From the NCBI GenBank assembly GCA_964522405.1, contig CAZFTR010000001.1, positions 116,686 to 180,685 on the forward strand: a stretch of DNA of 64,000 nt, read 5' to 3'. Below the pieces are notes generated by a model. The model was not told where the DNA came from, made no database searches, and saw only the letters and a list, made by a program, of their open reading frames with translations. Both the position numbers and the translations under genes were made by a program. Positions 13,381-55,638 of this stretch are shown one piece after another (within the stretch, counting starts at the first letter, position 1; the number at the start of each line of letters is the position of its first letter). The DNA is from an uncultured Gammaproteobacteria bacterium (GTDB lineage: Bacteria > Patescibacteriota > Patescibacteriia > Magasanikbacterales > UBA922).

Positions 13381-13481
13381 GTATTGTAAGAGAAAGCGAT
13401 TTTCCAACAATGAAATTTGTCAAATGATTTGTTTTTTCTTAACTGAATTTTTATTATTTGCTATAATGATAATATTAAAAA

Positions 13482-13870: not shown

Positions 13871-13887
13871 ATTAGAAAAAATAAATT

Positions 13888-13918
13888 AAAAAACCACGGA
13901 TTAAACCGTGGTTTTTTA
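13888..13918. terminator. Bidirectional hairpin terminator (AAAACCACGGATTAAACCGTGGTTTT)
   Basis: Perfect stem flanked by A/T runs on both sides. Confidence 0.6.
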
Positions 13919-13921
13919 ATG

Positions 13922-15842: not shown

Positions 15843-15844
15843 AT

Positions 15845-16990: not shown

Positions 16991-16993
16991 TTT

Positions 16994-18133: not shown

Positions 18134-18189
18134 GTTGGGTAGGAAAAAATATGTTATAATTTATTGGCTATTGGTTATTCACTAATAAT

Positions 18190-19320: not shown

Positions 19321-19412
19321 TTTTTTTTCAAATATTTATAAACAGGTAGAGGGCTGCCTGTTTTTTAATAATAGCAATTTTATGCTATAATATAATAAAA
19401 TTTAAACTTATC

Positions 19413-21998: not shown

Positions 21999-22002
21999 TT
22001 TT

Positions 22003-28379: not shown

Positions 28380-28982
28380 ATGAAAATTATAAAAGAGGAA
28401 AATTTAAATTTAGATGAAATTGTTGAGGAGTTGCGACAGGGTGCTGTTATTGTTTACCCGACAGAAACTTGTTATGGTTTGGGTTGTGATGCTAGCAATC
28501 AGGCTGCGGTTGATAAAATTTTTGCTATCAAAAAAAGACAAAAAGACAAGGCATTGCTGGTAATTGCTGATGATCCTTCCACCATGATCAATTATGTAGA
28601 ATGGAACGAGCAGTTAGAACAAATTTCAGAAAAATATTGGCCAGGTCCACTAACAGTTGTAGTTGAAACTCGACCAAATTGTGGATTGGCAACTGGTGTT
28701 GAGGCTGAAGACAAGACTGTGGCTTTTAGAATAACAGATCATCCTCTGGCTTCCACACTTAGCAAGGTACTTGGAAAGCCAATTGTATCGACTTCAGCAA
28801 ATATTGCAGCAGCAGAAAGTCCATATGATATAGAATCTGTTAGAAAAATGTTTGAAGGAATGGACCAGCAACCAGATGTAGTCATTGATTCAGGTATCTT
28901 ACCTCATAAAATACCATCAACAATTATCAAATTAAACAATGGAAATTTTGAAGTGATTAGACAGGGCGAGGTGGTAGTTTAA
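28380..28982 (+). CDS. tsaC: L-threonylcarbamoyladenylate synthase (TsaC/YrdC type)
   Basis: VIVYPTETCYGLGCDASNQAAVDKIFAIKKRQKDKALLVIADD; about 200 aa, single YrdC domain. Confidence 0.8.
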   Translation: MKIIKEENLNLDEIVEELRQGAVIVYPTETCYGLGCDASNQAAVDKIFAIKKRQKDKALLVIADDPSTMINYVEWNEQLEQISEKYWPGPLTVVVETRPNCGLATGVEAEDKTVAFRITDHPLASTLSKVLGKPIVSTSANIAAAESPYDIESVRKMFEGMDQQPDVVIDSGILPHKIPSTIIKLNNGNFEVIRQGEVVV

Positions 28983-29169
28983 AATAACTAATAATTAGCA
29001 ACTAACAATTAACAAGTGATTGGTGATTGAATGCTGTCAATTGAATTAAACCGCTTGCCAAACACAAGGGATCCCTCGATTACGTTTTTCTTTCAGAAAA
29101 CTTCACTCGGGATGACAGTGCTGTCATCCGCATAATCAGGATTATCCGTAAATCCGAATACCCCAACAC

Positions 29170-30384
29170 ATGAAAAAAAGGAGAGCTAAACAATTGCAAA
29201 GAAATTTTTCTCGGATGTTTTGGATTCGAGCTTTTTTGAATCTCAAGGTTATAAATATTGTCTTGTCACTTTTTTATCTGCACAGGGGAGCAACACTAGC
29301 TGAGATTTTTTATCTTGGACTTTTTTGGGCGACAGGTGCCTTGCTGTTTGAAATACCCTCAAGCTATCTGGCAGACAAATGGGGGAGAAAGAGAACCATA
29401 ATTTTGGGTGCGATTTTCATGTCTATTTATTTGTTTGTTTTTATATTTGCTCAGGGTTTTATCTGGTTGGCGGTAGCCATGGTTTTCTACGGTCTTAGCT
29501 TTGCTTGTTTTTCCGGTACAGATCATGCACTTCTCTATGATACAGAAAAAGAATTAAGAGGAGAGGAAAAAACTTTATCCAGGCTTGGTTCTTATGATTC
29601 AGCCCAAAATATATTTAAGATTTTTACTCCGATCATCGGGGCATTGATTGCTCATGATTTAAGCTCTATTCAATTTGTTATTGTTATAGTAATTGATTTT
29701 ATCGGAACACTTGTGGCTTTGTATTTGTCATTTAGAATTGTTGAGCCAAATCATCATATGGATTTAGAAAAACAAGAAGCCGGAATAATTATGGATGCAA
29801 TTAAGATTTTTAAAACTCACAAGATGTTGGCCAGGGTGATCTTGAACAGTGAGTTAGTATTTTTTGCAAGCTTAATTATTTTCCTTTATTATCAGAAAAT
29901 ATTTGTTGATCTTGGGTTAACAATTATATTTATTGGTGTTGGTTGGGGTTTTTCTCATCTCTTGAGATTTTTGGTAAAAAGGAATATTCATTTATTGATG
30001 CCCAAAATATCAATTTACAAAAGAATAAATATTTTAAACCACATAGCTTTTGCGTTTTTAGCCAGTTTTATAGTTGTTTGGTTTTCTGTTAAGTTTGCGG
30101 TTCTGCTATTTATACTTTATATAATATTTTCAGTCACTGAAGGAGCCAGAAAACCTCTATTTGCTGAAATATACAATAAATATAGTCATTCATATAACAG
30201 GTCAACTACATTGTCTCTGGCAAACTTTACTCATAGTATTCTTGAGTTCCCAATTTTTATTTTTGCTGGGATTTTGATTACAAAAAATATCATATTTCCA
30301 ATTATCTTTGGATTATTTTTAATATTATTTACTTTAGTGTTTTTGACATTAAAGCAACCACAAGGTAAATTAAAGAGACTATGA
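29170..30384 (+). CDS. MFS transporter
   Basis: About 12 predicted TM helices; loop 2-3 motif region GRKRTIILGAIFMS. Confidence 0.7.
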   Translation: MKKRRAKQLQRNFSRMFWIRAFLNLKVINIVLSLFYLHRGATLAEIFYLGLFWATGALLFEIPSSYLADKWGRKRTIILGAIFMSIYLFVFIFAQGFIWLAVAMVFYGLSFACFSGTDHALLYDTEKELRGEEKTLSRLGSYDSAQNIFKIFTPIIGALIAHDLSSIQFVIVIVIDFIGTLVALYLSFRIVEPNHHMDLEKQEAGIIMDAIKIFKTHKMLARVILNSELVFFASLIIFLYYQKIFVDLGLTIIFIGVGWGFSHLLRFLVKRNIHLLMPKISIYKRINILNHIAFAFLASFIVVWFSVKFAVLLFILYIIFSVTEGARKPLFAEIYNKYSHSYNRSTTLSLANFTHSILEFPIFIFAGILITKNIIFPIIFGLFLILFTLVFLTLKQPQGKLKRL

Positions 30385-31538
30385 ATCATCAACATCCCAA
30401 ATTATATTTTATAATTTTTCTGGGCATTGCCCTGCTTGCTTCTATTGGAATTGGCTGGCAATGGACTCAGACTCTTCATGCAGTAGAGATTTCTTCTTTA
30501 ACTTCTCAAATAACTCCGGTTGTAAATAGAAGGCCGGAAGTTATGCTCAAACAGCAGCAAACCAAACCTCTAAAAAGAGAAGTAAAAGGAGTTTATCTAA
30601 CAGCTTATTCAGCGGGAAATACCAAAACAGTCGATGGTATTATTGATCTTATCAATCGAACAGAATTAAACGCAGTTGTTGTTGATATAAAAGATTATAG
30701 CGGAAAAGTCTTATATGATAGTGATTTAGAAATTATAAATAACTTAGAGCTTGAAGATGATCGAATCGGAGATGTGCGAGCACTTATCAAAAAATTACAT
30801 GATCATGATATATATGTAATAGCCAGACAAACTGTTTTTCAGGATCCAATTTTGGCCGAGAAAAAACCAGAACTGGCAATTCACAGCAAAAATGGAGGTC
30901 TTTGGAGAGATAATCTAGGTTTGGCTTGGGTAGATCCAACTCAAAAACAGGTTTGGGAATACAATGTAGCGCTTGCCAAAGAAGCAATTAGGCTAGGTTT
31001 TGATGAGATACAATTTGATTATGTTAGATTTCCATCAGATGGAAATATGGGTTTAGTAATTTATACTAATGGAGAATTACAAATACATGAGGTGATGGCT
31101 GGCTTTTTCGCCTTTTTGGGTCAAGAGTTGACTAGTCAACCAGCCTGGATATCTATAGATATGTTTGGTTTTGTTATGGAGCGCCATGATGGTATGTCTA
31201 TTGGCCAGCGTCTTGAAGATGCTGTTGATCATATTGATTATATTTCCCCGATGATGTATCCATCACATTATCCGAGTGGGCATCTTGGCTTGGCAAATCC
31301 TGCTGATCATCCAGGCTTGGTTATAGACAATGGTATGAAAAAGGGAATGCCTTCTTTTGCAGACAAAAGAGCAAAACCAAGACCTTGGATCCAAGCCTTT
31401 CATATTGGTGCATATTATGACGGACCGAAAATACGAGCTCAGATAGATCATGTTGAAAAATATACAGATGGTGGCTGGTTATTATGGAATCCAATAAATA
31501 GATATAGTACAGATGGTTTGAAGCTGTCTTCAAATTAA
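30381..31538 (+). CDS. Putative glycoside hydrolase-like TIM-barrel protein (GHL/DUF4015-like)
   Basis: N-terminal signal/TM, then VKGVYLTAYSAGNTKTVDGIIDLINRTELNAVVVDIKDYSGKVLYD, which is typical of this family. Confidence 0.5.
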   Translation: MNHQHPKLYFIIFLGIALLASIGIGWQWTQTLHAVEISSLTSQITPVVNRRPEVMLKQQQTKPLKREVKGVYLTAYSAGNTKTVDGIIDLINRTELNAVVVDIKDYSGKVLYDSDLEIINNLELEDDRIGDVRALIKKLHDHDIYVIARQTVFQDPILAEKKPELAIHSKNGGLWRDNLGLAWVDPTQKQVWEYNVALAKEAIRLGFDEIQFDYVRFPSDGNMGLVIYTNGELQIHEVMAGFFAFLGQELTSQPAWISIDMFGFVMERHDGMSIGQRLEDAVDHIDYISPMMYPSHYPSGHLGLANPADHPGLVIDNGMKKGMPSFADKRAKPRPWIQAFHIGAYYDGPKIRAQIDHVEKYTDGGWLLWNPINRYSTDGLKLSSN

Positions 31539-31547
31539 GCAGTAGCT

Positions 31548-32369
31548 ATGCAAACTGATTTGCTCAAACCGACCTATCTCAAAGAACTTTGTCAGAAATA
31601 TCATCTCCGACCTTCTAAAAGCTATGGACAAAATTATCTGATTTCATCATCTCCTATTCTTAAGATGATAGAAGCAGGAAGTCTTACCAAAAAGGATACA
31701 ATTATAGAAATTGGTCCGGGTTTTGGTGTTTTAACTTTGGCTATTGCTCCAAAAGTGAAGAAAGTCATTGCTTTTGAAATTGAGCAAAAATTAAGAGAAT
31801 ATTGGCAGCAAAAACAAGGGGAATTTCAGAATATAGAAATTGTTTGGGGTGATGTGCTCAAGCAGATTGAAAAGACTAAACTTCCTGCTAAATACAAAGT
31901 TCTTGCCAATCTTCCTTATCAAATTACTTCTTATATTTTACGAAAAATATTTGAACTAAAAAATCCCCCGGAACAGATAATTGTTATGGTTCAAAAAGAA
32001 GTAGCAGATCGGATTTGTGCTAAGCCCGGGGAAATGAGTATTTTAGCTGTGTCAGTTCAATATTTTGGAAATCCAAAAATTATAACCAAAGTACCAAGGG
32101 GAAGTTTTTGGCCTTCTCCAAAAGTAACATCAGCTGTGGTAAGTATTTCAAATATACAAAACAGATCTCAAGCAGAAGTTTTTTTTAGATTTGTTAGAGC
32201 TGGTTTTTCTCATAAACGAAAACAACTTTGGAAAAATCTTTCAAGTGCTCTCTCTATAGAGCCGACATTGGTCAAAAAATCTCTTGAAAGGTTATTTGCA
32301 AATCATAAGATTAGAGCAGAAGAGTTGGGAGTGGGTGATTGGGAAAAATTAGTCGATGATCTTGGATAG
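31548..32369 (+). CDS. rsmA: 16S rRNA (adenine1518/1519-N6)-dimethyltransferase
   Basis: SKSYGQNYLISS ... IIEIGPGFGVLT (SAM-binding) ... NLPYQITS. Confidence 0.88.
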   Translation: MQTDLLKPTYLKELCQKYHLRPSKSYGQNYLISSSPILKMIEAGSLTKKDTIIEIGPGFGVLTLAIAPKVKKVIAFEIEQKLREYWQQKQGEFQNIEIVWGDVLKQIEKTKLPAKYKVLANLPYQITSYILRKIFELKNPPEQIIVMVQKEVADRICAKPGEMSILAVSVQYFGNPKIITKVPRGSFWPSPKVTSAVVSISNIQNRSQAEVFFRFVRAGFSHKRKQLWKNLSSALSIEPTLVKKSLERLFANHKIRAEELGVGDWEKLVDDLG

Positions 32370-32534
32370 AGAGCGGGGATTGTCAATAATACTTTTTTTG
32401 TTTCGCTTCACTATTGCGGATTTTTTTAAATATGAGATAATCAATTGTTAAAATTGGTTATGCCCAGTTTAAATGTATTGCTGATTGTTGTTATTTGGTT
32501 TTTTTGATATAATGTATTTACAATATAACTCATT

Positions 32535-33218
32535 ATGCAAGACAAATTTGCAGAATCGCAAGCACTATCTCGAGAAAGAAAAATAGGTTTTGTTTTCCTA
32601 TTGATTTTTGCTATTTTGACAGTAAGTCTGGGAGTGCTTCAGCTCAGAAATACTATTTACGGACCTTATGCAATTAAAGTCGCCAAAAAAGATAGTGTTG
32701 AGAGTCTTCTACTAAAAGACGAAGATGCCAGATTGCAACAAATCGATACAGACCATGATGGAATAAATGATTATGAAGAATTGTTTTTTTATGAAACCAG
32801 TCCGTATATTCCAGATACTGATTCAGATGGTATAAGTGATAAGGAAGAATTAGAAGATGGAACTGATCCGCTTTGTCCAAAGGGACAGGATTGTGGTGAA
32901 GTTCAGAGCGAGGCAATTTCAGATCAAGCACCAAAACAAGAAGTTATTGGATCTCCGATTGTTGGAAATGTCAAAACAGCTGCTGAATTGTTGGGTGGCG
33001 CTACTACTGACCAGCCTCCAGAAGTGGATATTGCCAGTGAATTGGCAACCATTGCCACTGATGCTGATATACTTAGAGAGATGCTTTTGGCAACAGGAAA
33101 TATAACCCAAGAAGAACTTGATAAAGTAACAGATGAACAACTATTAGAATCTGCTAAAAACCTTCTTTCTACGCAGGGTACTGCTCCAGTAGCTACCGAA
33201 GAAGAATCCAGTCAATAA
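32535..33218 (+). CDS. Membrane-anchored acidic protein with Ca-binding-like DxDxDG repeats
   Basis: TM segment IGFVFLLIFAILTVSLGVL; DTDHDGINDYEE and DTDSDGISDKEE (thrombospondin-type-3/EF-like) repeats; stop codon abuts the start of the giant ORF. Confidence 0.5.
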   Translation: MQDKFAESQALSRERKIGFVFLLIFAILTVSLGVLQLRNTIYGPYAIKVAKKDSVESLLLKDEDARLQQIDTDHDGINDYEELFFYETSPYIPDTDSDGISDKEELEDGTDPLCPKGQDCGEVQSEAISDQAPKQEVIGSPIVGNVKTAAELLGGATTDQPPEVDIASELATIATDADILREMLLATGNITQEELDKVTDEQLLESAKNLLSTQGTAPVATEEESSQ

Positions 33219-33219
33219 C

Positions 33220-36200
33220 TTGCTGATTTTTATGTTTAAAAATCAAAATAGAAAATTAAAAACCTCATTGATAATACTGTTATCAAGTTTTGTTATTTTG
33301 GTTCCGGTTCTTGCCGGTTTACTAAAAATTGATCAGGCTCATGCTCAGGCCGCTGCAGCAGCAAAAGCAGCAGCAAAAGTTGCCACAGAAGCAGCATCAG
33401 GAGCAGCAAATTCAGCTCCGGCAGTGCCAACTCATGAGTTGAGTAGTGTTCCGAAGAAAATGCAAAAAATAGAAGATACTCTAGACGATACTTTTTTATC
33501 TACAGGACTTTCAGCTCTTATTAGTGGAGCTTCATATTTTTTAAACCGCCTTGCTTATGATGGTGCTAGGTGGATTGCTTCGGGTGGAAAAGGGCAGGGA
33601 GCACTTGCTTTTCAAGATGGATTTGGAGAGTACATCTTAAAAGTTGGAGGAGACAGTGTTGCTGATGCTGTTCAGCAGTTGGGAAATCCCTATGGATTAA
33701 ATCTCTGTAAACCCTCAAATTTAGATGTGCAGGTTTACCTGCAACTAGGATATAGAAAAGTTTATGATGGGCTTGGTGGAGAAGGTGGTCCTAAACCAAA
33801 ATGTTCATGGTCAGAGCTCAAGGATAAAATTGAATTTCAAACTTCAGGCGACGGAGTGCGATATTTTGGAGACACTATTGTCGAAGGTTTCCAAAACTCT
33901 TTTAGAGTTGAAGATAGTGATTTTGGAATTGCACTTGGAGCAGCTGGACAGCTAGACAGAATATATGCCCAAAAACAACAAGAAGCAGAGGGTGAACAAT
34001 TGGTTGGTGAAGGGTTTAAGCCACTTAAGAGTATGTTGTCTGGAAAAACTCTAACTCCGGCACAGATAATAAAAGAAGAAGCAAAATCTATTACTGCCAA
34101 ACATCAGGGTCAGATGACGGCTAATCAGATATCTGGAGTTTATGGCTCAGGAAGTATTGAGGCTCTGGTGGGTGCTGCTTCAATTTTTTTGACTACACTT
34201 ATATCTGATCTTTCCAAAAATATTTTAACTGATGGTTGGTTGACAGATCCTGGTTCAGGTGGAGGGGGTAGTTTATCTTCAAATACAGAAGTTGTAATCA
34301 ACGAATTTGCTTCAGCCATAAACCAAAATAGAAGAGCTGCAGAAAATGCCTTTAAATTTTTGTTTACAGCAGTTCCTGTTAAGCAGAGTTCCAGTTATCC
34401 GCTTTTGGATGATTTTGCCTCATGTCCTGATGATCCTGCTTTAAACCATCCTAAATTAACAAATTGTGTTATTGACCGAGCCTTTAGAGAAGCAATAGAT
34501 CGTGGAAACCAGGGGAGTAGTTTGACTATAAGAGAAGCCATGCTAAAGGAAAACGGAGAACTTCTCCACGGAGGTTGGCCTCTAATATCTCCTCTGAGAG
34601 AAGAAGAACATACAGAAGTAAAAGATTGTTATAGAAATGGATATTGCTACTCAAATATACAGAAATTGAGAAAAGCTCGTATCCTTCCTCTTGGTTTTGA
34701 GATCGCAGCCCTTCGTTCTGATCCGGATCAGCCCTGGACTCTTAAGCAGGTTGTAGATGGATTCAACGATTGTGCGGTTGATCCTGATTCTGGAAATATT
34801 GTCCAAAGTTCAAAAAAACCTTTTTGTCATTTGATTGATCCAAATTGGATTATACGCTTACCTGATCCGCGTTGTGAATCACTTGTTTATGGGCCAAATT
34901 TGATTTCCAATGCTGCGCCTACAAGACATAGTGAATGTGCTGATATTTCTACTTGTTTACTTGAAGATGAAAATGGCCAATGTATTGGTCAATATGGTTA
35001 TTGTCTAAAAGAAAAAAATGTCTGGAATATGCCGGGTCAATCTTGCCCTGCTCAGTTTAGCACTTGTGACACTTATACCAATACTAAGACTGGGAAAATA
35101 GAAAGCTTTTTATCAAGAACTGTAGACTATGATCAATGTACTAGTGATGCTGCTGGCTGTAGAGCATATAGTATTTACCAGGAAGACGGTGCATGGAGAA
35201 ATAGTAGTCAAACAGATGAGCTTTTAAAAACCAAAGGAGAGGCGCAAACCATGTATTTTGGAAAACTGGCAAGCCATGCAACTTGTCCTATTGATGTTGA
35301 TTTAAATGCTGATGGTTGTTCTGCATTTCTTCAGGTAACTTTTGACAGCGAAGTTGGTAATTATCAGAAAATAGCAGCTGCCACACCTCTTTATATGCAA
35401 AAGGCTCCAAATTATCTAGGTTGTTATGATACTGATTTATCTACCAAAGAAATTATAGATTGGCCAATTTCAGAAACTGATTTAACCCTTCTGACTGATA
35501 GACCTGAACAATGTGCAGACTATGCTCAGGTTTGTGTAGAAGATGAAGCAGGTTGTAGAAAATATCGCGCAGCTGAATCCGGAGTTCAAGACGTGGTTGG
35601 TATTGTGGGAGCAAATTCTTGTCCTGCTGAATGCGTAGGTTATGATACTTTCAAACAGGAAGAAAGTAATTTTGAACCTTCAATATTCCCAATGTATTTT
35701 ATTGCTGACGGTGTTGGGTCTAGAAGTTGCCCAGGACAGTATTCCAGCTGTTCAGAATTTACCAATATTGGCGCTGCCGGAGAAGGTGGAGAAGAGCTTG
35801 AGTATTTTGTTGATATTAAATATTGTGAAAAACCAGAAGAGGACAATGAAAAAACCTATTATTCTTGGGAAGGATCTGACAGTGCTGGATATGTTTTGAA
35901 AGTTCACAAAATGAAACAAATTGATCAAGAGGAATATACTTCTTATATTTTTAAAGTGGGTCAAGCAATTCAATTTAATCCTGGAGATAATTTAAGTTTT
36001 TATGAGATTGGATCACCGGCATATGCCAAAGATTCAGTAGAAAACTTAGAAGAATATTATCATGCTTGTAATGAGGAAAATTATAAGCAACTCATAAATG
36101 GAGAAAATCAGTTAGGAGATATAGACGAAGGTTGTGCTGCAATTTATGATAATGATGGAAATATTTATTATAGAATTTTATCAGAAACTGTAACTGTATC

Positions 36201-39200
36201 TGATCAATGTACACCTTATAGAAAAACTAATACTTATCTTGAATTGGATTCAGATTTAAATACTAGTGAACTTTGTTCATACAAATCAGGACTTTGGTCA
36301 GATGCTAATCTCAGTTGTGAGAGATGTTTCAATGGCGGAGAATATCTAGATGGGTCTTGTGTTTATTGGACTATTCCAAGTGAGTCTCTTTCATGTCAAG
36401 GTCCTGCAGGACAAGAAAATTTGTACAATGGTTGTCGAACTTATACTGGAAATGCAGTAAATGATCCTGTTCAGAAAATATTCTTTGATTTTGAACCTCA
36501 GCCATCTGATGATGATCCTGATGGTTTGAACAATGCCAAAGATGGTTGGTCTGTAGGAGAAATTACTCTTGACGCACAGCAAGTGGGACTTCATTCATTG
36601 CAAATTGATTCTGGTATTGTTGCTTTAGATGTGCCTGCTGAGATATTTACTGAGGATAAATGGTATGAATTAACTTTTTGGGCTAGAAGCGCTGTTGAAC
36701 AAAACCTAGTTGTGAAACTGATTCAGATTGCTCAGGATGTTGGCAATTTCAATTCTAATCCAAATATAGAAGGTGGGGAGATCCCAGTTAAAATAAATAC
36801 CAATTGGCAGGAATATAAATTAGGTCCGGTTCAATTTGCTGGAAGTACTGACTTGGAGGTGACGGCTATGTTCCAGGCAGTTTCTCTTGGGGTGAGTAGT
36901 GCTTATTCAATTGATAATGTTCGTATAGTGGAAGTTCCAAAATTTCACCGCATTAAAAATTCATGGCAACAAAAAGATACTGGTCCACTTGGTGAAGAGG
37001 TTGTTTTGGATGTTCCTTTGCTCTGTGACACTACACCTACTGATCCGTTCCCAGGTGAACATCTTGGCTGTAGTGCATATACGGACAAGACTGCAGATCC
37101 TGATCTGCCAGTCTATACTTCTGGATTTGAAAAATTGTGCAGAGTCAAAGCAGAAGGTTGTCGTCCTATAGTAGATACTTTTAATACAGTGAGCCATGAA
37201 GATCCGGGCAATCAAGATAATACCTTAACTCATGTATACAATGCATGGTGTGAGGAATTGGCAGAGGACATTTGTCAGGTTAAACACATTGATCAGGTAT
37301 TGGGAGAATGTCAGGTTGGAAAAGGTAAAAATGGTTGTTATATTCCAAAAATTGTCATTCCTGCCGGTGTGGAATTCAAAGATTTGTTAAATACCACAGA
37401 TTCAACAGTGGTTGTACCTGCTGATACAGAGGAAACTACACCAATTTATCTAACCTACAATACTGAGTATGCATGTTCTTCCAGCTTTATGGGTTGTAAA
37501 GCTGGTGCTCTTGAAGAGCAATCTCTACCAACAGAAAATCAAATTTCCTATGAGTTTAGTGAGCAAATGGTCTATGATAATCCGACTTTTTATGAACAAA
37601 CTCTTTGTAAATCAGAGGAGTTAGCTTGTGAAGAATACCGACATGGTAACAGTTTGGCTTACTTCAAAGATCCATATCTTACTGGTTCCAAACTGTGTAA
37701 ATATCGAGAAAATTTAGACTCAGGTGAGAACTATGGATGGTTTATGGAGGGTATAGGAAAATGTACTGGAACAGAAGATCTCTGTAGTTCAAGTGATGAT
37801 TGTTCTGAGGATGTTGCTTGTGATCTTGAGATAGATGTTCCTTGTTATGATAATTATCTGCAGGCTGGTGGAGAAAATGGCATTTGGTCAAATGATGCCT
37901 TATTTCATCCAATAACAGGAGAGAGTTTGTATGATGGTTTTGTTGGATTATGTGAATCACAATATAATAATTGTACTGAATATTTGGATCCACAGGATAG
38001 TTCTGGAGCTGATCCAGATGGTAAACCTTATTACGTTATAGCAGACAACCAATTGATTTCCGGTCAGTCTGAGTGTGCCGGACAGGTTAGTTTGCACGAG
38101 GGTTGTGTCTTGTTTGATCAAACAGACAACCCAAATAAGTTTTATGACAGTGAAGCAAGTTATAAGAAAAGCGCTGCTACAGATAATCCAAAATATCAAC
38201 CGGTTACACCAATTACCAGTGGTAATCTGGACGCAAATGTAGTATTGAAAGTTGAAGCTAATAGAAGCTGTAGCGAATGGTTGTCATGTAAAAATAGTAT
38301 CAAGATTACTGATGAAAATGGAATTCCAAAAAATGTTTGTAATGAATTCAAAGCTTGCAAGGAATCAGATGGTTCAGCGGGCTGTGCTAATTGGGCTGTT
38401 GATTCTGCTTACGAAACAGAGCCTTTGACTCAAGAGAAATATATTAAGCGTGATACATCCTGGTATGGAGAAGAATACACAGGATATTCACTGTTTGATA
38501 AATATCAGATTAGTAGTATTGCTTATGTTTCTGTAGAAGACGAGCCATTTTCATATATGGCTTACGAATTACATCCTGGAGTTGCTCCAAATAATAACTG
38601 TATAGGACAAGCTGCTTGGAGTAAATGTGGTTTTGATAATGGTGGTAGATGTCATAATGAAAAATGTATCTATACTATGAGCGGTCCTTTTTTACCTGAC
38701 TCTGATACAAAAGATGAAATCGTGGCAGAGTTAGAGGGCGGAACTTGTAAGGCTTTCCCAGAGGATAGTTCACCATATGATTTTAGTTTTGCAGAGCAAC
38801 CAACGCTTCATGAGACTGCCTATGATGACGGGCCTGATAGATATACTTTTGAAACCAAGAAAAAAGGATATGGTGGAGCAAATATTTGTCAGAGTGGAGA
38901 GAATTGCTCCTGTGAGTACAAGAAAATAGCTTATGGTAATGGTACAACTGATTACTTGAGCTATAGTGAAGATAAATATGCCAAAGGTGTTTGTACGGGA
39001 GGAGATTTTGCTCAGAAATCTTGTAGAATAAATTCTGACTGTGGTGCGGGTGGTTCTTGTAGTAGGATCACGAGTATTGAAACTCATATAGGTTTGAGGG
39101 GTCTGTGTATGGAATATGATTTGAGCAGACCAATAGACAAAGATAAGGATATTTACCCGTGTCTCACTTGGTTGCCGGTGGATACTGCGGCGACAGTTCT

Positions 39201-42200
39201 TGATCCATATAACAATGATCCAAAAGCAGGTTATCTACCACGGCTTGATGCCAGTGTTACTCTAGCCAATGGTTTTAAGAGTGAGTATGGACAAGTTTAT
39301 TGTAGCGAGGCATCAGGAAATGCCAAGGGTGCCTATGACATAGATGGATACAGAGAGATAACAAATGCAATTAACCAATCTACAGTTCCAAAATTTTCAG
39401 CCATATGTGATGGTAATCCAGATACTTTTGTTTGTAACAAGGACCTGTATAGTAATATGTTCAATGAGTATGGAGATTATATCTTTGATGAGAAAAAATG
39501 GGTAAGTATTACTGGTAATCCAGAGATAGCTTATGATGTTGGTGATGCAAATGCAGAATTTCCATTTACAGAAAAACTGCCTGTATTGCGTGATCCATTT
39601 AATGCTGGTTGGGGTGATAATTTTTCTTCTTTTAATACTTGGGAAGATGTGGAAGGATCCAAAACCACTATAATGCAAGGATTTTTTGAATGGCAAACTC
39701 GTCCACCGGCTACACCTGGTTCAGATGTGCTTACTGGCGCTAGTTTGTATCCTGATGATGACCAGAACAAGAATATATATAATTATCCGGATTTTGTCTA
39801 CTCCTTGGTTCAGCAATGGGCCTGGCATGGTGGTATGTATGGCAGAGGGTTGGCAGAAACCAAGGAATCCAAGAATATTATTTTGAATACCAAGAGTATA
39901 TCTGATCTGTGTGGAGATTTGATAGGTAAGGGGCAGCTATATACCGGTTGTGCAGACCTCTATAATTTTGCTGTAAATGCTCCAACTAAAACTCAGCAGG
40001 TTGAGTTATTAAAAGCTCTTCTTAACGCTCGAGTCAGTAGAATTTTAGCTGAAGATACCGAGGAAATTAAGCAGCAAGAAATAGTCAATCCAAATTCAAC
40101 TGTATTATTTACCTCAGCTCTTTATTTTAGGGATTACTTATATACTTCTTTGAAAAAAGTAGAAGAGATTGCGCCTGTAAAGGGTCTTGAAAGTAAAGGT
40201 CAGGATAAGAATAAATGGTATCTAGAAGATGAAGAGATGACCGAAGACTTGAATGGGGATGGTAAGGTTGATTATAAAGATATCACTGATCCTGAGTCTA
40301 TATTTTTGAGAGTAAGTTATGAACCGGTAGATTTTCATAGTTATACTCCGGGAACAATTGAAAAGGTCTTTGATTTTACAGGCGGCAGTAATAAAAGCAC
40401 AGATAAAGATGATCCAAATAATTATTTTTACAAGAGCTCAATTTGGGGGCATGCTACCAAGAAACTACGTGGTTATCATCCGGTCTTTTACAATTATGAA
40501 GCAGCAATAGAGGTTGTAGAAGATGAGATCAGTAAATTGCACTATGGACCAATGATGGCTCCAAATGGGATTGAAAGAGTTCTTACTATTGATTTTGATA
40601 CTCTTAATAATAGTCTGCCGCTTGAGTCAATCACAGCAAATGATGGGGTTTTGTACGATCTTAACTATTATTCAGAGGCTGTAAAAGGAGTTTATGTTTT
40701 TAAGGTAAGCCCAAGAACAGGTCCTAGAGCAGGTTGGTCACGATATATTATTATATCTATGGAAGACGGGGGATTTAGCGAAGATAAACCAGTGACTGAT
40801 TTGAGTCTTGATTTCTTTGTGGAGCTTCTTGACGAGTGGGCTGGAGATTCAAAATCCAAGTGGTCAAAGGGTGTGGATTGGATTGACGAGGATTTGGGAA
40901 ATAGATCACTTATTTGGGTCTGGGCTGATTTTGATGAGAAAGGTAATATGTCCGATGATTTCATAAAATCAAACTACCAAGCTTGGTATCAAAATACTAA
41001 AAGTATTTTTGTCTACAGTTCAGAGTTCAATGCCAAAGATGGAAAAACTCCTTTCTTGGCAGTTGTAGCAGAGACACATCCAAGATGTACAGAATTCCAG
41101 GTTGTTTATGATAGTGAAACCGAAGGGCTGGGCGGTTCAACTAACAAGGCTTGGACTGATAGAGTTTGGAATTATTCTAATTATCAACCGGGAACTACCT
41201 TTTTCTTTGGTAATAAATTAACTAAGCCGGCCTTTTCTCGACCTTTTGGTTCATTGCAATTAACTGCTGATTCTTTTGAAGGTACAAATGCATCAGGTTT
41301 GAGTTGGGAAGATGCCAGACGCAGATACACCTTTAGATCACCTGAGTTTGATGGTATACCTTATTCATGTGACGCAACAGCTCTAGAGTCAGAGCAGACC
41401 GCATTCAATCAAGGTAACTTTTTTAATGAAGGTTTGATGTATGATAATCCAGATTTTATTGGGCTTATAGAGTGGGGTGAACAAAAATGTATAGCGTCTT
41501 ATGGTGGAAATAATGAACTATATAACACCATGTCTTTTGTTGAGGCTGAAAATGGTATAGATATGCTATCTCAATTATTTAAAAAATCATTTACCTCTAT
41601 TAGAGCAAATGAACAGGGAGAAAATAAATTTGGTATTAAAGGAGCAATTGATCCACAGAATTCACTCTTTGTGAAGGAAGTTGGATTTGATGGTTCATCT
41701 ACTGCTGAGGCAGGTCTAATTCCTCCACAAATATATTCACTAAATCCAACCACTTGTTATGATTATACCGGTGGTAAAATTAATTGTACTATTGGAGAAG
41801 CAGATAATATAACCATAAACAGAAGAAATTTCATGTTAGAAGATTATGATGATGATGGATTTTATGATGAAGATCTAAATGGTGATGACTTGCCTGATCT
41901 GATAATTGCAGAAAATTCATTTACTGCTGTTGCTCATTTCTTTGCTTATGCTGATCATAACCGCATGCCTATTCGAAGAGTAATGGTTGATTGGGGAGAT
42001 GGAGATATTTCAAATCAAGATAGAAAGGGAATGTATAAGAATAGAAAACCATATTGTATTGGTGTTGGTAATGAGCAGAGTCCAGATATTGGAGAGTGTT
42101 CTCAGTCTGAGCAATTAACTTGTCTCAAAGATTCAGATTGTCCTTTGGCAGGAGAAACTTGTGATTTGAATGCAGCCAGGCATTTTGGAAATTCAGATAG

Positions 42201-42624
42201 AGCTTGTGTGCCGGAATATTTTGAATTTATGCATGGTTATTCTTGTTCGCAGTTTGATCTTCAATTGAGTGAGCTTGATAATGTTGATTTCTTGGAATAT
42301 ATGATTGAGTTTGATCAGCTTGATGAGTATCTGGGTAGGCCGGACGTAGAGCAAACTCTTAAGAATAGGGGTTATACTCCAGAAGTAAATACCAAGGTCT
42401 GTGTATTCCAGCCAAAAGTTCAGATATTGGATAATTGGGGGTGGTGTAATGGAACGTGTGATTATAAAGGTCCTGGAAGTGGGTGCTATTCCGAAGATGA
42501 GCTTAGTGGAGATTTTTGCGAAGTGAGTTCAGACAAGCCTTGGACAGGTTATGGTGAAGAGACAGTAGACAGTCTGGGTAATACGATTAGAAGTGGTTCA
42601 ATTATAGTAATTCCGACATCATAA
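33220..42624 (+). CDS. Giant (3134 aa) cysteine-rich predicted cell-surface protein
   Basis: Single uninterrupted 9.4-kb ORF with an N-terminal TM/signal (LIILLSSFVILVPVLAGLL), an Ala-rich linker, then a Cys- and Asp/Gly/Asn/Tyr-rich extracellular sequence with no catalytic motifs. Confidence 0.7.
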   Translation: MLIFMFKNQNRKLKTSLIILLSSFVILVPVLAGLLKIDQAHAQAAAAAKAAAKVATEAASGAANSAPAVPTHELSSVPKKMQKIEDTLDDTFLSTGLSALISGASYFLNRLAYDGARWIASGGKGQGALAFQDGFGEYILKVGGDSVADAVQQLGNPYGLNLCKPSNLDVQVYLQLGYRKVYDGLGGEGGPKPKCSWSELKDKIEFQTSGDGVRYFGDTIVEGFQNSFRVEDSDFGIALGAAGQLDRIYAQKQQEAEGEQLVGEGFKPLKSMLSGKTLTPAQIIKEEAKSITAKHQGQMTANQISGVYGSGSIEALVGAASIFLTTLISDLSKNILTDGWLTDPGSGGGGSLSSNTEVVINEFASAINQNRRAAENAFKFLFTAVPVKQSSSYPLLDDFASCPDDPALNHPKLTNCVIDRAFREAIDRGNQGSSLTIREAMLKENGELLHGGWPLISPLREEEHTEVKDCYRNGYCYSNIQKLRKARILPLGFEIAALRSDPDQPWTLKQVVDGFNDCAVDPDSGNIVQSSKKPFCHLIDPNWIIRLPDPRCESLVYGPNLISNAAPTRHSECADISTCLLEDENGQCIGQYGYCLKEKNVWNMPGQSCPAQFSTCDTYTNTKTGKIESFLSRTVDYDQCTSDAAGCRAYSIYQEDGAWRNSSQTDELLKTKGEAQTMYFGKLASHATCPIDVDLNADGCSAFLQVTFDSEVGNYQKIAAATPLYMQKAPNYLGCYDTDLSTKEIIDWPISETDLTLLTDRPEQCADYAQVCVEDEAGCRKYRAAESGVQDVVGIVGANSCPAECVGYDTFKQEESNFEPSIFPMYFIADGVGSRSCPGQYSSCSEFTNIGAAGEGGEELEYFVDIKYCEKPEEDNEKTYYSWEGSDSAGYVLKVHKMKQIDQEEYTSYIFKVGQAIQFNPGDNLSFYEIGSPAYAKDSVENLEEYYHACNEENYKQLINGENQLGDIDEGCAAIYDNDGNIYYRILSETVTVSDQCTPYRKTNTYLELDSDLNTSELCSYKSGLWSDANLSCERCFNGGEYLDGSCVYWTIPSESLSCQGPAGQENLYNGCRTYTGNAVNDPVQKIFFDFEPQPSDDDPDGLNNAKDGWSVGEITLDAQQVGLHSLQIDSGIVALDVPAEIFTEDKWYELTFWARSAVEQNLVVKLIQIAQDVGNFNSNPNIEGGEIPVKINTNWQEYKLGPVQFAGSTDLEVTAMFQAVSLGVSSAYSIDNVRIVEVPKFHRIKNSWQQKDTGPLGEEVVLDVPLLCDTTPTDPFPGEHLGCSAYTDKTADPDLPVYTSGFEKLCRVKAEGCRPIVDTFNTVSHEDPGNQDNTLTHVYNAWCEELAEDICQVKHIDQVLGECQVGKGKNGCYIPKIVIPAGVEFKDLLNTTDSTVVVPADTEETTPIYLTYNTEYACSSSFMGCKAGALEEQSLPTENQISYEFSEQMVYDNPTFYEQTLCKSEELACEEYRHGNSLAYFKDPYLTGSKLCKYRENLDSGENYGWFMEGIGKCTGTEDLCSSSDDCSEDVACDLEIDVPCYDNYLQAGGENGIWSNDALFHPITGESLYDGFVGLCESQYNNCTEYLDPQDSSGADPDGKPYYVIADNQLISGQSECAGQVSLHEGCVLFDQTDNPNKFYDSEASYKKSAATDNPKYQPVTPITSGNLDANVVLKVEANRSCSEWLSCKNSIKITDENGIPKNVCNEFKACKESDGSAGCANWAVDSAYETEPLTQEKYIKRDTSWYGEEYTGYSLFDKYQISSIAYVSVEDEPFSYMAYELHPGVAPNNNCIGQAAWSKCGFDNGGRCHNEKCIYTMSGPFLPDSDTKDEIVAELEGGTCKAFPEDSSPYDFSFAEQPTLHETAYDDGPDRYTFETKKKGYGGANICQSGENCSCEYKKIAYGNGTTDYLSYSEDKYAKGVCTGGDFAQKSCRINSDCGAGGSCSRITSIETHIGLRGLCMEYDLSRPIDKDKDIYPCLTWLPVDTAATVLDPYNNDPKAGYLPRLDASVTLANGFKSEYGQVYCSEASGNAKGAYDIDGYREITNAINQSTVPKFSAICDGNPDTFVCNKDLYSNMFNEYGDYIFDEKKWVSITGNPEIAYDVGDANAEFPFTEKLPVLRDPFNAGWGDNFSSFNTWEDVEGSKTTIMQGFFEWQTRPPATPGSDVLTGASLYPDDDQNKNIYNYPDFVYSLVQQWAWHGGMYGRGLAETKESKNIILNTKSISDLCGDLIGKGQLYTGCADLYNFAVNAPTKTQQVELLKALLNARVSRILAEDTEEIKQQEIVNPNSTVLFTSALYFRDYLYTSLKKVEEIAPVKGLESKGQDKNKWYLEDEEMTEDLNGDGKVDYKDITDPESIFLRVSYEPVDFHSYTPGTIEKVFDFTGGSNKSTDKDDPNNYFYKSSIWGHATKKLRGYHPVFYNYEAAIEVVEDEISKLHYGPMMAPNGIERVLTIDFDTLNNSLPLESITANDGVLYDLNYYSEAVKGVYVFKVSPRTGPRAGWSRYIIISMEDGGFSEDKPVTDLSLDFFVELLDEWAGDSKSKWSKGVDWIDEDLGNRSLIWVWADFDEKGNMSDDFIKSNYQAWYQNTKSIFVYSSEFNAKDGKTPFLAVVAETHPRCTEFQVVYDSETEGLGGSTNKAWTDRVWNYSNYQPGTTFFFGNKLTKPAFSRPFGSLQLTADSFEGTNASGLSWEDARRRYTFRSPEFDGIPYSCDATALESEQTAFNQGNFFNEGLMYDNPDFIGLIEWGEQKCIASYGGNNELYNTMSFVEAENGIDMLSQLFKKSFTSIRANEQGENKFGIKGAIDPQNSLFVKEVGFDGSSTAEAGLIPPQIYSLNPTTCYDYTGGKINCTIGEADNITINRRNFMLEDYDDDGFYDEDLNGDDLPDLIIAENSFTAVAHFFAYADHNRMPIRRVMVDWGDGDISNQDRKGMYKNRKPYCIGVGNEQSPDIGECSQSEQLTCLKDSDCPLAGETCDLNAARHFGNSDRACVPEYFEFMHGYSCSQFDLQLSELDNVDFLEYMIEFDQLDEYLGRPDVEQTLKNRGYTPEVNTKVCVFQPKVQILDNWGWCNGTCDYKGPGSGCYSEDELSGDFCEVSSDKPWTGYGEETVDSLGNTIRSGSIIVIPTS

Positions 42625-42636
42625 AAATTTTCAAAA

Positions 42637-42666
42637 ACAAAAAATGACCTACAAGGTCATTTTTTA
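42637..42666. terminator. Bidirectional terminator (AAAAAATGACC-tacaa-GGTCATTTTTT), copy A
   Basis: Perfect stem with A/T runs on both sides. Confidence 0.65.
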
Positions 42667-42697
42667 TTTAAAATATTTTTGATTTTTTTAATAAAAA

Positions 42698-42798
42698 GGG
42701 CCGTGCCGAAGCGCGTCCACGAGTTCACCGAAGTGAGACTTGTGGGCGCGCTTGGCTTGGCGTGCGACTGCTGAGAAAACGAGTTCGACTGCCGTGTA
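42698..42798 (-). other. Conserved GC-rich structured 3' element, copy A (nested about 60-nt helix with a CGAA tetraloop)
   Basis: gccgaagcgcg / ccacgag / tcac-CGAA-gtga / cttgtgg / cgcgcttggc nested pairing; about 75 nt identical to copy B at 43657-43761. Confidence 0.5.
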
Positions 42799-43326
42799 CT
42801 ACGGCTTGAGCTCCAGCGTGTAGTCGGGGCCGTCGTTGTCGAAGATCGTGATCTCGATTCCCTCGGAGGTCTTGATGACCTCGTAGTACCAGCCTGCCGG
42901 CTTGTCGAGGGGGAAGACCACAGCGGCCTCCTCGGGGTTGTCGTGCCAGGTGATCAGCGGACCGGTGATCATGGGCTTCTTGCCGAAGCCGATCATGGTC
43001 ACCTCACAGGTGTGACCACCGAACCCGTTCTCGATCATCTTGGTCGTGATCTCCTCGCCCCAGCCCTTGAAGTGCTTCCACTTGCCCGCGATGTTCGGGC
43101 AGATGTCCACCACGGGGATGGGCTCAGGGGCAGGCTCTTCTTCCGGGGTGGGCTCTTCAGGTCGCGGGATCGTGTCCGGCTCGACGAACCGGGGCTGTTG
43201 GGCTGTGTCTTCTGGGATCTGATCTCGGTTAGTGCTCCGAGGGTAGTTGGAGCTACAGCTGGTAAAAAGAAAAGCCACGAGCGTGGCCACGAGAATGAGG
43301 ATGTTTTTCCTCTCCATGGTGGCCAC
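42799..43326 (-). CDS. Lipoprotein paralog A with a conserved C-terminal domain; high-GC codons
   Basis: Lipobox LFTSC, Pro/Glu-rich linker, conserved block VVDICPNIAGKWKHFKGWGEEI...GFGGHTCEV...WHDNPE...GWYYEV.KTSEGIEIT. RBS AAGGAGGTG upstream. Confidence 0.7.
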   Translation of the reverse strand: MATMERKNILILVATLVAFLFTSCSSNYPRSTNRDQIPEDTAQQPRFVEPDTIPRPEEPTPEEEPAPEPIPVVDICPNIAGKWKHFKGWGEEITTKMIENGFGGHTCEVTMIGFGKKPMITGPLITWHDNPEEAAVVFPLDKPAGWYYEVIKTSEGIEITIFDNDGPDYTLELKP

Positions 43327-43500
43327 CTCCTTGCAGTAGCAGCCGGAGCTATAGTGGAATTTCCACTACACTTCTAGCTACCACTAGCAGGAGTTTTTTG
43401 TCGCACGCTATAGATCTTGCCTTTTGGCTAGGTTTAGCCAAGCAGACAAAGATATTGAAAAGAGCTTTTAGTCATCAAAGACTGATAAATATTAGACTAT
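43327..43500 (-). promoter_or_regulatory. Conserved 5' leader, copy A, with palindromes (TAGTGGAA-A-TTCCACTA; GCTAGTGGTAGC; TTGGCTAAACCTAGCCAA) and an upstream TTGACA-17-TCTAAT promoter-like site
   Basis: Nearly identical to 44278-44450. The palindromes were read directly; the promoter call is weaker (the -10 is non-consensus). Confidence 0.45.
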
Positions 43501-43586
43501 ATTTTTGTAATTTTGTCAAGTTTTCTATAGTAAAATAAAACTATTAGAAATGGTCAAATTAGGGTAATCCTTGTTTTTCAAATTTA

Positions 43587-43616
43587 AACAAAAAATGACC
43601 TGGTGGGTCATTTTTT
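43587..43616. terminator. Bidirectional terminator, copy B (AAAAAATGACC-tggtg-GGTCATTTTTT)
   Basis: Same stem as copy A but with a different loop. Confidence 0.6.
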
Positions 43617-43656
43617 GTTTAAGTAATTTTTCACATTTTTTAAAAAATCATTTAAG

Positions 43657-43761
43657 GGGCCGTGCCGAAGCGCGTCCACGAGTTCACCGAAGTGAGACTT
43701 GTGGGCGCGCTTGGCTTGGCGTGCGACTGCGAGGAAAAAACGAGAGTTCGACTGCCGTGTA
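43657..43761 (-). other. Conserved GC-rich structured 3' element, copy B
   Basis: See copy A. Confidence 0.5.
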
Positions 43762-44277
43762 CTACGGCTTGAGCTCGGCCCAGATGTCGGGCTTGGCCTC
43801 GTTGTCGAATCGCGTGATCTCGATCCCCTCGGAGGTCTTGACGACCTCGTAGTACCAGCCCACCGGAGCCGGAATCGGGAAGACCACGGCGGTCTTCTCG
43901 GGGTTGTCGTGCCAGGTTGAAGCCGGACCGGGGAACATCGGCTTCTTGCCGAAGCCCGTGATGGTGACCTCGCAGGTGTGGCCACCGAACCCGTCCTCGA
44001 TCATCTCGGTCACGATCTCCTCACCCCAGCCCTTGAAGTTTTTGTACTTGCCCGCGATGTTCGGGCAGATGTCCACCACGGGGGTGGACTCTTCGGGGGC
44101 AGGATCCGCGGGCTTGTCGAGCCGCGGGGTCTCGACCGGCTCGACGAACCGGGGTTCCTGTGCGGCGTCTTCCGGGACGTAGTCCCGATCTCCCCCACGC
44201 TGAGGGGTGAAGCCGCAACCGGTGGAAAGCAAAGCCACGAGCGTGGCGACCATGAGCAGATTGCTCTTCTTCATCAT
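43762..44277 (-). CDS. Lipoprotein paralog B (about 65-70% identical to A); high-GC codons
   Basis: Lipobox LSTGC, Pro-rich linker, and the same conserved C-terminal domain as copy A. Confidence 0.7.
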   Translation of the reverse strand: MMKKSNLLMVATLVALLSTGCGFTPQRGGDRDYVPEDAAQEPRFVEPVETPRLDKPADPAPEESTPVVDICPNIAGKYKNFKGWGEEIVTEMIEDGFGGHTCEVTITGFGKKPMFPGPASTWHDNPEKTAVVFPIPAPVGWYYEVVKTSEGIEITRFDNEAKPDIWAELKP

Positions 44278-44450
44278 GGCGCCACCTCCTTGCAGTAGCA
44301 GCCGGAGCTATAGTGGAATTTCCACTACACTTCTAGCTACCACTAGCAGGAGTTTTTTGTCGCACGCTATAGATCTTGCCTTTTGGCTAGGTTTAGCCAA
44401 GCAGACAAAGATATTGAAAAGAGCTTTTAGTCATCAAAGACTACTATCCA
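44278..44450 (-). promoter_or_regulatory. Conserved 5' leader, copy B
   Basis: See copy A. Confidence 0.45.
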
Positions 44451-44713
44451 TTAAGTATTAGACCATGTTTTACCAGTTTTGTCAAGCTCTCTATAGTGAA
44501 AAGGTTAATAATTTGTGTATAAAAAGATCAGTTTTTGCTTAATTTAGCCTAGATTTTGATTTTAATAAAATTTAATCTAGGACTTGCATAGTTGCAAAAA
44601 AGCCTGTTTTTGCTAAAATAGAAGGACTTTTATAGAGTTGGTTTATAGTCAGTAATTAGTGAAAAATTTCCTAAACTACTAACTGTCAACTGTTAACTAC
44701 AAACTATTTAAAT

Positions 44714-48264: not shown

Positions 48265-48272
48265 GGAGTTTT

Positions 48273-49016
48273 ATGAGTGAAGAACAAACATTAACTTTGC
48301 TGATTCCGGTTTTCAATGGAGAAAACTATCTTAAAAAGACTTTTTTAGAACTTGAAGATTTTTTTGCTGATAAAAAATATTTAGATCAGATAATTTTTAT
48401 AGATGATGGCAGTAATGACAATAGTTTTGAATTGATTAGTAATTTCAAAGAAGTCTCTAATTTAAATATTAAAATTGCCAGAATAGAAACTAATTCAGGT
48501 AAGGGTGCTGCTCTGAAAAAAGGTATGACACTGGTAGGGGATTCAGATTTTGTTGGTTTTACAGATATTGAACTTCCTTTTGGTTTAGAAGTTTTAGACC
48601 AGATTCTAGATAAATTTGATAAAGATCTTGATACTAAATTGGTTTCTGGCAATAGAAAACTGGGTAGCAAAAAGCAATATTCATTTTATAGAAAATTTTA
48701 TACAGTTTGTTTTAGGGTATTTATTCCCAAGAAGTTAAGAAAAATTCCTGATACCCAATGTGGGTTAAAAGTATTTAGAGCTAGTGAAGCAAAAAAGATT
48801 TTTAGCAAAATTAAAACCAATAGATGGGTATTTGATCTGGAATTATTCTTAATTGCACTTGAAAATTCCTATAAAATAGATTTTGTTCCGGTAAGTATTA
48901 AATCTAGTTGTGTTGATGGAAAGGGTGGGGTTTCTTTTTTGCGTCATGGAGCCTTTATTATTTCAGATTTAAATAGAATACGTAAATATCAGAGAAATGG
49001 ATACTACAGTCTTTAA
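48273..49016 (+). CDS. Glycosyltransferase family 2 (polyprenyl-phosphate mannose/glucose synthase, DPM1/GtrB-like)
   Basis: LLIPVFNGENYL ... IIFIDDGSNDNS ... (DxD) GT-A motifs; 247 aa. Confidence 0.75.
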   Translation: MSEEQTLTLLIPVFNGENYLKKTFLELEDFFADKKYLDQIIFIDDGSNDNSFELISNFKEVSNLNIKIARIETNSGKGAALKKGMTLVGDSDFVGFTDIELPFGLEVLDQILDKFDKDLDTKLVSGNRKLGSKKQYSFYRKFYTVCFRVFIPKKLRKIPDTQCGLKVFRASEAKKIFSKIKTNRWVFDLELFLIALENSYKIDFVPVSIKSSCVDGKGGVSFLRHGAFIISDLNRIRKYQRNGYYSL

Positions 49017-55630: not shown

Positions 55631-55638
55631 TTTATTAG

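Follow-up and report, generated by a model that had tools for sequence, protein, structure and literature searches.

A conserved gene pair of Magasanikbacteria encodes a giant cysteine-rich protein with an export signal and a TSP3-repeat membrane partner

What does the giant gene in the middle of this DNA encode, and what might its product build together with the small membrane protein encoded directly before it? The DNA, called the window below, is a stretch of 64,000 nucleotides from contig CAZFTR010000001.1 (GenBank assembly GCA_964522405.1), recorded as an uncultured Gammaproteobacteria bacterium and placed by GTDB in the Magasanikbacterales. Magasanikbacteria are uncultured, as are most candidate phyla radiation (CPR) lineages, and we know of no account of how they contact their surroundings or partners. 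The locus offers a concrete candidate for such contact in every related genome found, combining a secreted protein of 340 kDa, an obligate membrane partner, a domain of glycan-binding type and a swappable cassette. With moderate confidence, we propose that the two genes form a module, conserved in every homologous locus examined, that builds a large extracellular surface structure. The genes are as follows, and residues of the giant protein are numbered so that residue 1 corresponds to window position 33232.

32535 to 33218, plus strand: partner gene, 227 residues, isoelectric point (pI) 4.1; transmembrane helix at residues ~17-37, two TSP3 repeats at residues ~69-116, a C-x5-C pair and a helical C-terminal segment
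33232 to 42624, plus strand: giant gene, 3,130-residue precursor; mature protein ~342 kDa, pI 4.4, 100 cysteines; intact in all complete homologous loci

A preliminary description of this DNA had claimed one open reading frame (ORF) of 3,134 codons, and the frame is indeed uninterrupted: counted from a TTG codon, it runs on the plus strand from 33220 to 42624 (~9.4 kb). The start conserved in the family is an ATG at 33232 (MFKNQ...), which shortens the product to 3,130 residues. We set the start of the giant gene at this ATG because the 3,130-residue version is identical to database protein P0001 and homologues likewise start with MF..K. The GC content of the gene is 0.38, which is usual for the genome.

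The partner protein has an N-terminal hydrophobic helix and matches the bacterial TSP3 repeat family PF18884 over two stretches (E 6.2e-9; 36 bits, with the cutoff at 25), which agrees with the earlier description of a membrane-anchored protein with calcium-binding repeats whose stop abuts the start of the giant gene. When the protein was aligned with three orthologues, the motifs DTDHDG and DTDSDG were invariant in all four sequences, and the C-x5-C pair and the helical C-terminal segment were conserved. The partner family comprises 241 homologues of ~210-250 residues, and those with named records come nearly all from Magasanikbacteria.

The two genes are strictly paired. The last base of the partner gene's TAA stop is 33218; the TTG follows after one base and the ATG of the giant gene after 13 nt. 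A scan of one genome per species gave 101 matches to the giant protein, and we compared the best 80 of these 101 stretches, which represent 79 distinct loci. Seventy loci held enough upstream sequence for the pairing to be evaluated, and in each of these the partner gene immediately precedes the giant gene. A hidden Markov model of the partner placed it there in 69; the other locus, L046, was missed since the longest-ORF rule chose another gene, and its partner lies just before the match. The partner and giant genes abut or overlap in most loci. Two elements flank the pair:

32505 to 32513, plus strand: possible extended -10 element TGATATAAT, 22 nt upstream of the partner ATG, read from the sequence, with no proof of function
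42639 to 42666, no strand assigned: hairpin with an A-run on one side and a T-run on the other, resembling a terminator on both strands; repeated at 43582-43624

The hairpin folds at -12.2 and -16.0 kcal/mol on the two strands (z -4.7 and -5.1), and no shuffled sequence folded as well. A consensus scan of the 165-nt spacer between ksgA and the partner gene gave merely weak promoter-like sites, for example at 32425-32454. We consider co-transcription of the pair likely, because the genes abut, no terminator-like site was found between them on the plus strand, and the hairpin follows the giant gene. The tight pairing behind the earlier claim of co-transcription is documented far more strongly by the 70 loci than by the abutting stop and start, and transcription as one unit stays a likely reading of the gene arrangement.

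The giant gene belongs to a large family. A word-indexed search returned at least 189 homologues of 2,700-3,350 residues at 35-46% identity, all unnamed or "hypothetical", with mostly Candidatus Magasanikbacteria on the few records that bear an organism name. An exhaustive phmmer search with residues 80-1270 as the query gave 1,336 clusters at 50% identity, of which 1,042 had E <= 1e-30. A shorter subgroup (~2,500-2,750 residues) keeps the same gene order. The usual order before the pair is Sua5/TsaC, DUF4015 (a putative glycoside hydrolase) and KsgA (28380-32369 in the window); KsgA was found in 62 of the 79 scanned loci, and Sua5 in 42. Informative organism names on the records of the giant family are nearly all Candidatus Magasanikbacteria. 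Many titles of the locus records name Magasanikbacteria, Magasanikiibacteriota or Patescibacteria, and about as many read "uncultured Gammaproteobacteria"; gene content and synteny suggest that the latter are placeholder or wrong taxonomy. The isolate names of the loci titled Gammaproteobacteria (L010, L012-L014, L016 and others) contain binchicken or SRP..._co. Literature searches found no paper on the giant-protein family, and a match for Magasanikbacteria plus cysteine was rejected, as it concerned an unrelated metallothionein motif.

The N-terminus of the giant protein has a K/R-rich n-region, a hydrophobic core (hydrophobic segment at residues 6-38) and a cleavage site between AHA and Q. 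Of 117 full-length homologues, 111 have an [AVS]-x-A motif behind the hydrophobic core, mostly at positions 34-39. The preliminary description had called this end of the protein an anchor; the hydrophobic N-terminus is real, but its pattern is that of a cleavable Sec signal peptide, which makes an anchoring role doubtful. From this pattern, the giant protein is probably exported via Sec, with a signal peptide that is more likely cleaved than kept as an anchor.

The protein contains exactly 100 cysteines (3.19%), about six times as much as in the window's other 42 ORFs. It is thus cysteine-rich in a relative sense, as had been claimed, but it does not hold "hundreds" of cysteines in CxxC and CxC patterns: each of these motifs occurs once, and cysteines are most often spaced as C-x6-C (12 times) or C-x5-C (10 times). 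In an alignment of 70 homologues at 35-50% identity, 94 of the 100 cysteines are conserved in at least 80% of the sequences, and most are invariant. Where cysteines are missing, they are lost together: the pair (3076,3085) in 14 or more sequences, the quartet (1511,1518,1524,1530) in 4, and further the pairs (514,532), (548,569), (398,412), (575,584) and (696,1415). The total number of cysteines is even in 56 of the 70 homologues, and histidine makes up 1.1% of the giant protein. Because cysteines are lost in pairs and a quartet, the protein carries an export signal, CxxC is nearly absent and histidine is scarce, the sequences point to ~47-50 structural disulfides and not to metal sites. Judged in this way, the giant protein is almost certainly extracellular and disulfide-bonded.

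The giant protein can be divided along its length into seven regions:

33232 to 33342, plus strand: Sec-type signal peptide, residues 1-37; predicted cleavage between AHA and Q
33469 to 34401, plus strand: cysteine-poor, mainly helical conserved N-terminal region, residues ~80-390, from the conservation profile
34423 to 36435, plus strand: cysteine-rich conserved core I, residues 398-1068; 35 cysteines, an alpha domain at residues ~410-550 and several C-x6-C-x-E-[FY] hairpin motifs
36454 to 36981, plus strand: CBM4/CBM22-like beta-sandwich, cysteine-free, residues ~1075-1250
37024 to 39303, plus strand: cysteine-rich conserved core II, residues 1265-2024; 42 cysteines, each conserved in at least 93% of homologues
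39379 to 41781, plus strand: variable region with few cysteines, residues ~2050-2850; occupancy 0.3-0.8, conservation 0.1-0.3, discrete types
41782 to 42621, plus strand: conserved C-terminal module, residues ~2850-3130; D-rich calcium-binding-like loops (DYDDDGFYDEDLNGDD), a PKD-like beta-sandwich, 13 cysteines and the terminal ...IIVIP

The 70-sequence alignment shows good conservation of residues ~100-2030 and ~2850-3100 and poor alignment of residues ~2050-2850. AlphaFold2 models were made of residues 80-1270 and 2560-3130 with 26 sequences each, and large parts of them are of low confidence. The model of residues 80-1270 has a mean pLDDT of 58.7; the alpha domain and residues ~830-1245 are reasonably confident, and the N-terminal helical region is predicted as long helices at low confidence (pLDDT ~30-55). 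The beta-jelly-roll of residues ~1075-1250 in the predicted model can be superimposed on CBM4/22. One homologue (P0056) carries a match to PF02018 (CBM_4_9), and the top PDB match of the family profile is CBM4-2 (E 0.0036). Going by this modelled fold, the sandwich is a candidate glycan-binding site. The C-terminal module is predicted to hold a PKD-like beta-sandwich centred on VMVDWGDGD. Several DxDxDG-type loops, DYDDDGFYDEDLNGDD near the C-terminus among them, occur in the acidic mature protein.

A check on periodic cysteine-rich repeats, which had been put forward earlier, gave a negative answer. When the profiles of the two cysteine-rich halves were compared by hhalign, with each other and each with itself, no domain-scale repeats were found, and the sole recurring unit was a hairpin motif of ~30 residues, C-x6-C-x-E-[FY]...YY. 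Cysteines 696 and 1415 (window positions ~35317 and ~37474) are 719 residues apart and both are lost in three homologues (P0020, P0024, P0039), which hints at a long-range disulfide joining the two cysteine-rich halves across the CBM-like domain.

The centre of the variable region, ~350-600 residues between two conserved anchor motifs, falls into BLAST groups of 47, 7, 3, 3, 2 and 2 sequences plus singletons. The type found in the present protein is common to six others at ~28-31% identity, compared with 40-50% in the core. By these comparisons, the variable segment of ~800 residues resembles a cassette that evolves fast or can be exchanged. No reverse transcriptase, as would belong to a diversity-generating retroelement, was found among the ORFs of the window. 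In the related locus L083, a gene for a 122-residue bAvd / 23S_rRNA_IVP-like protein (2811-3179) stands between DUF4015 and ksgA, a short distance upstream of the pair. Avd proteins go with diversity-generating retroelements, and no reverse transcriptase was seen in this 17.6-kb locus. At its far end the giant protein terminates in ...GSIIVIPTS, and a hydrophobic motif [IV][IVF][IV]xP (here IIVIP, window ~42590-42621) is present within the last 25 residues of 96 of 117 homologues. The motif resembles no known sorting signal among LPXTG, PEP-CTERM and the T9SS CTD.

How could these parts work together? We hypothesize that the 3,130-residue product would be exported by Sec via its probably cleavable signal peptide and would fold extracellularly to give an acidic, non-repetitive ~340-kDa protein, stiffened by ~47-50 disulfides. 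It would display the CBM4/22-type sandwich, the variable segment of ~800 residues and the C-terminal PKD-like module with its calcium loops. The partner would be a signal-anchored membrane protein whose acidic TSP3 ectodomain could hold the giant protein at the cell surface, and calcium together with the disulfides would rigidify the giant protein. The exposed variable segment and the CBM-like domain could then contact an external partner, such as the envelope of a host cell or a polysaccharide. We infer a physical interaction of the two proteins, a dependence on calcium, retention at the surface and a function in attachment; a role in host attachment is plausible given the size and location of the giant protein. 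In its most specific form, the proposal is that the pair would constitute an undescribed surface organelle specific to Magasanikbacteria, a rigid, disulfide-cross-linked and calcium-dependent spike or stalk on a dedicated TSP3 membrane receptor, with an interchangeable cassette of ~800 residues that sets host or substrate specificity. We put forward this organelle as a tentative possibility.

Several points weigh against a contact structure of this kind. Surface retention of the giant protein is hypothetical because the protein has no recognised module for anchoring to wall or membrane (LPXTG, SLH, LysM), and it could instead be released, or be anchored by an uncleaved signal peptide. The CBM-like domain lies below the thresholds of Pfam, with no match to CBM_4_9 in the present copy even at E 10. 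About 45% of the giant protein (residues 550-830 and 1265-2830) is without a confident model, which leaves room for an unrecognised enzymatic or pore-forming domain. Finally, the housekeeping neighbours and the presence of the pair in every related genome found fit a role in the cell's own envelope equally well.

This last point leads to a serious rival, because the giant gene belongs to the syntenic core and has housekeeping genes as neighbours (Sua5, DUF4015, ksgA, aspS). The giant protein could be a cell-autonomous envelope scaffold, an S-layer-like or wall-spanning lattice or spacer, in which the CBM-like domain binds the cell's own wall glycan and no host is recognised directly. The single locus next to ksgA, Sua5 and DUF4015 fits such a scaffold, as do the very high conservation of two thirds of the protein's length and the glycosyltransferase and wall-related genes nearby. 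So does the contrast with the published giant Patescibacteria case, in which there are no full-length homologues and rapid domain reshuffling is suggested (PMC11809585). On the other hand, SLH and other S-layer anchoring domains are absent, a 340-kDa monomer would be costly for a lattice, and a hypervariable segment of ~800 residues in discrete types is more typical of surfaces that face partners, phages or predators. We therefore regard a scaffold as possible, though on the unlikely side.

A less probable alternative is that the protein is a secreted effector or enzyme, with a divergent hydrolase, pore-forming or toxin domain hidden in the unmodelled regions and acting on the envelopes of prey or host. 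Besides the share of sequence without a confident model, two observations speak for an effector: the Foldseek results included binary-toxin translocases (iota Ib, CDTb) at E ~1e-6, and giant genes of predatory bacteria have been tied to cell-wall degradation (bioRxiv 10.1101/2023.11.21.568195). However, Pfam searched with the whole protein and with five separate segments (E up to 10), NCBIfam and PHROGs all gave no match for the giant protein, and a sequence-profile search of all PDB sequences gave none for the whole protein. The earlier statement that it has no enzymatic motifs is thus upheld as far as recognisable domains go. The variable part is internal and does not form a C-terminal toxin tip, and no conserved gene, immunity-like ones included, lies downstream of the giant gene in the related loci. 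With these results, we consider an effector unlikely.

Specific families were rejected in the same searches. Homology to RHS or a known adhesin family, which would have contradicted the earlier description, was found neither in Pfam and NCBIfam nor in the PDB profile search. An RHS/YD polymorphic toxin was rejected on the missing Pfam and NCBIfam matches, the internal position of the variable region and the unconserved downstream genes; an RTX or type I-secreted adhesin on the missing Pfam match, the lack of repeats beyond the ~30-residue motif and the Sec signal peptide. A wall-bound protein of LPXTG, SLH or LysM type was rejected given the C-terminus ...GSIIVIPTS and the absence of such Pfam domains. 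The protein also fell short of the features of a binary-toxin B or anthrax PA-type translocase, and the Foldseek matches are due to the CBM-like RBD1 of the iota and CDT toxins.

Could the conserved cysteines coordinate metal ions or clusters instead of forming disulfides? Their number, their conservation and the short C-x5/6-C spacings would allow it. Against metal binding stand the Sec signal peptide, the loss of cysteines in pairs with mostly even totals, the single CxxC and the low histidine content, and the protein has no match to a metallothionein, ferredoxin or cytochrome family. We judge metal binding to be very improbable. That the giant ORF is a pseudogene or an assembly artefact, for which no support was found, anomalous as the GC-rich duplicated unit next to it is, is effectively refuted and can be ruled out because every locus that holds the whole gene, across dozens of independent assemblies, has an intact single ORF (2,700-3,300 residues, 96-120 cysteines), and the present 9.4-kb ORF is itself uninterrupted and typical of the genome in its GC content.

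With the pair taken as the module for a surface structure that we prefer, the giant protein can be set beside known systems. The giant calcium-dependent RTX/BIg adhesins (LapA, SiiE, MpIBP) are likewise very large, acidic and extracellular, carry calcium-binding aspartate loops and a beta-sandwich of sugar-binding type, and are held at the surface by another protein and not by a covalent wall anchor, a retention that the giant protein may share. They differ in being essentially cysteine-free and in having tens of tandem Ig-like repeats, RTX repeats and type I secretion, whereas the giant protein carries a Sec signal and ~50 predicted disulfides and lacks large internal repeats and any Pfam match. 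Giant surface proteins have been reported from other CPR organisms: proteins of >4,000 residues with FhaB/DUF2341 in Patescibacterium danicum, which have no full-length homologues and for which rapid evolution by domain reshuffling was suggested (PMC11809585), surface proteins of >1,500 residues in Absconditicoccaceae (PMC13059738) and large adhesin-like proteins of >1500 residues in Parcubacteria (PMC4508563). They share with the present family the type of organism, the giant exported product, folds of adhesion type (concanavalin/CBM-like, FN3/PKD-like) and a suggested surface role. Those proteins are built of known adhesion domains, whereas the present family lacks FhaB, DUF2341, FN3 and integrin domains, is non-repetitive and cysteine-rich, and shows full-length conservation over ~1,300 clusters, fixed synteny and an obligate partner gene.

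The partner resembles bacterial TSP3 proteins (PF18884; OmpA-like proteins and Myxococcus CglD/MtsD) in having two DxDxDG-type repeats followed by a cysteine pair. For solved bacterial TSP3 repeats, the title of Dai et al. 2017, as cited in 10.1101/2023.11.21.568195, names calcium binding that depends on an intra-repeat disulfide. The partner differs from these proteins as a single-pass protein of 227 residues with no OmpA, VWA or lipoprotein module, and it scored 14 bits against the MtsD and CglD models, far below their cutoffs of 800 and 400. Compared with CBM4/CBM22 (CBM_4_9) modules, the domain of the giant protein sits in a non-enzymatic giant protein, and its sequence similarity is marginal. 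With eukaryotic disulfide-rich matrix proteins (thrombospondin, teneurin, reelin) the giant protein shares the design principle alone, and no EGF, TSP1, YD or reelin repeats were detected in it. Taken together, the family is best described as a new variety of giant bacterial surface protein that is new to domain databases.

The ~50 predicted disulfides make oxidative protein folding in CPR bacteria a question that can be tested. If the spike or stalk reading is true, these ultrasmall and largely anaerobic bacteria would run an efficient extracytoplasmic pathway for disulfide formation. If the giant protein is merely a structural protein of the envelope, it would still be of use as a marker of the lineage and would add a family to the domain databases.

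The hairpin behind the giant gene is also the first element of a tandem unit of ~960 bp (42635-43594 and 43586-44553). Each copy has a hairpin with A/T flanks, a GC-rich element of 85 nt, an ORF on the minus strand and, upstream of it, a segment of 173 nt; between the copies the element is 95% and the segment 97% identical. The two ORFs have 60-63% GC in a host genome of ~35% and encode lipoprotein-like proteins of 172 and 171 residues that are 66% identical, with signals ...LFTSC and ...LSTGC. Among 5.8 billion proteins the only homologue of each is the other, and neither ORF occurs in any of the 79 homologous loci; no Rfam family was found in the region. The unit may be foreign DNA, a very recent acquisition or a chimeric assembly. 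The preliminary description had linked the two loci through this hairpin. The terminator is indeed shared, but the orphan ORFs and their absence elsewhere leave a physical adjacency and not a functional link. A third GC-rich patch with the same anomaly of composition lies at 12042-13900, between tRNA-Leu(gag) and RNase P RNA. It includes a minus-strand ORF of 68% GC (12423-13286) for a 287-residue protein with a signal peptide, NTDYGA-type repeats and no Pfam match.

Upstream of the pair, a gene for an MFS transporter (29170-30384) is inserted between Sua5 and DUF4015; just 5 of the 79 loci gave an MFS homologue. Elsewhere in the window, a gene cluster for surface glycans at 14424-24012 encodes a Bac_transf initiating sugar transferase, three GT4 glycosyltransferases, an 861-residue DUF4012 protein and a 669-residue protein with weak DUF11 matches. 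Genes for AftA_N-like, GT2 and PMT_2-like membrane glycosyltransferases follow further downstream, at 46519-50451. The window also holds a class A bacterial RNase P RNA on the minus strand at 13920-14315 (RF00010, 161.9 bits) and four tRNA genes, Leu-gag at 11959, Arg-tcg at 25391, Lys-ctt at 25552 and Leu-caa at 55638.

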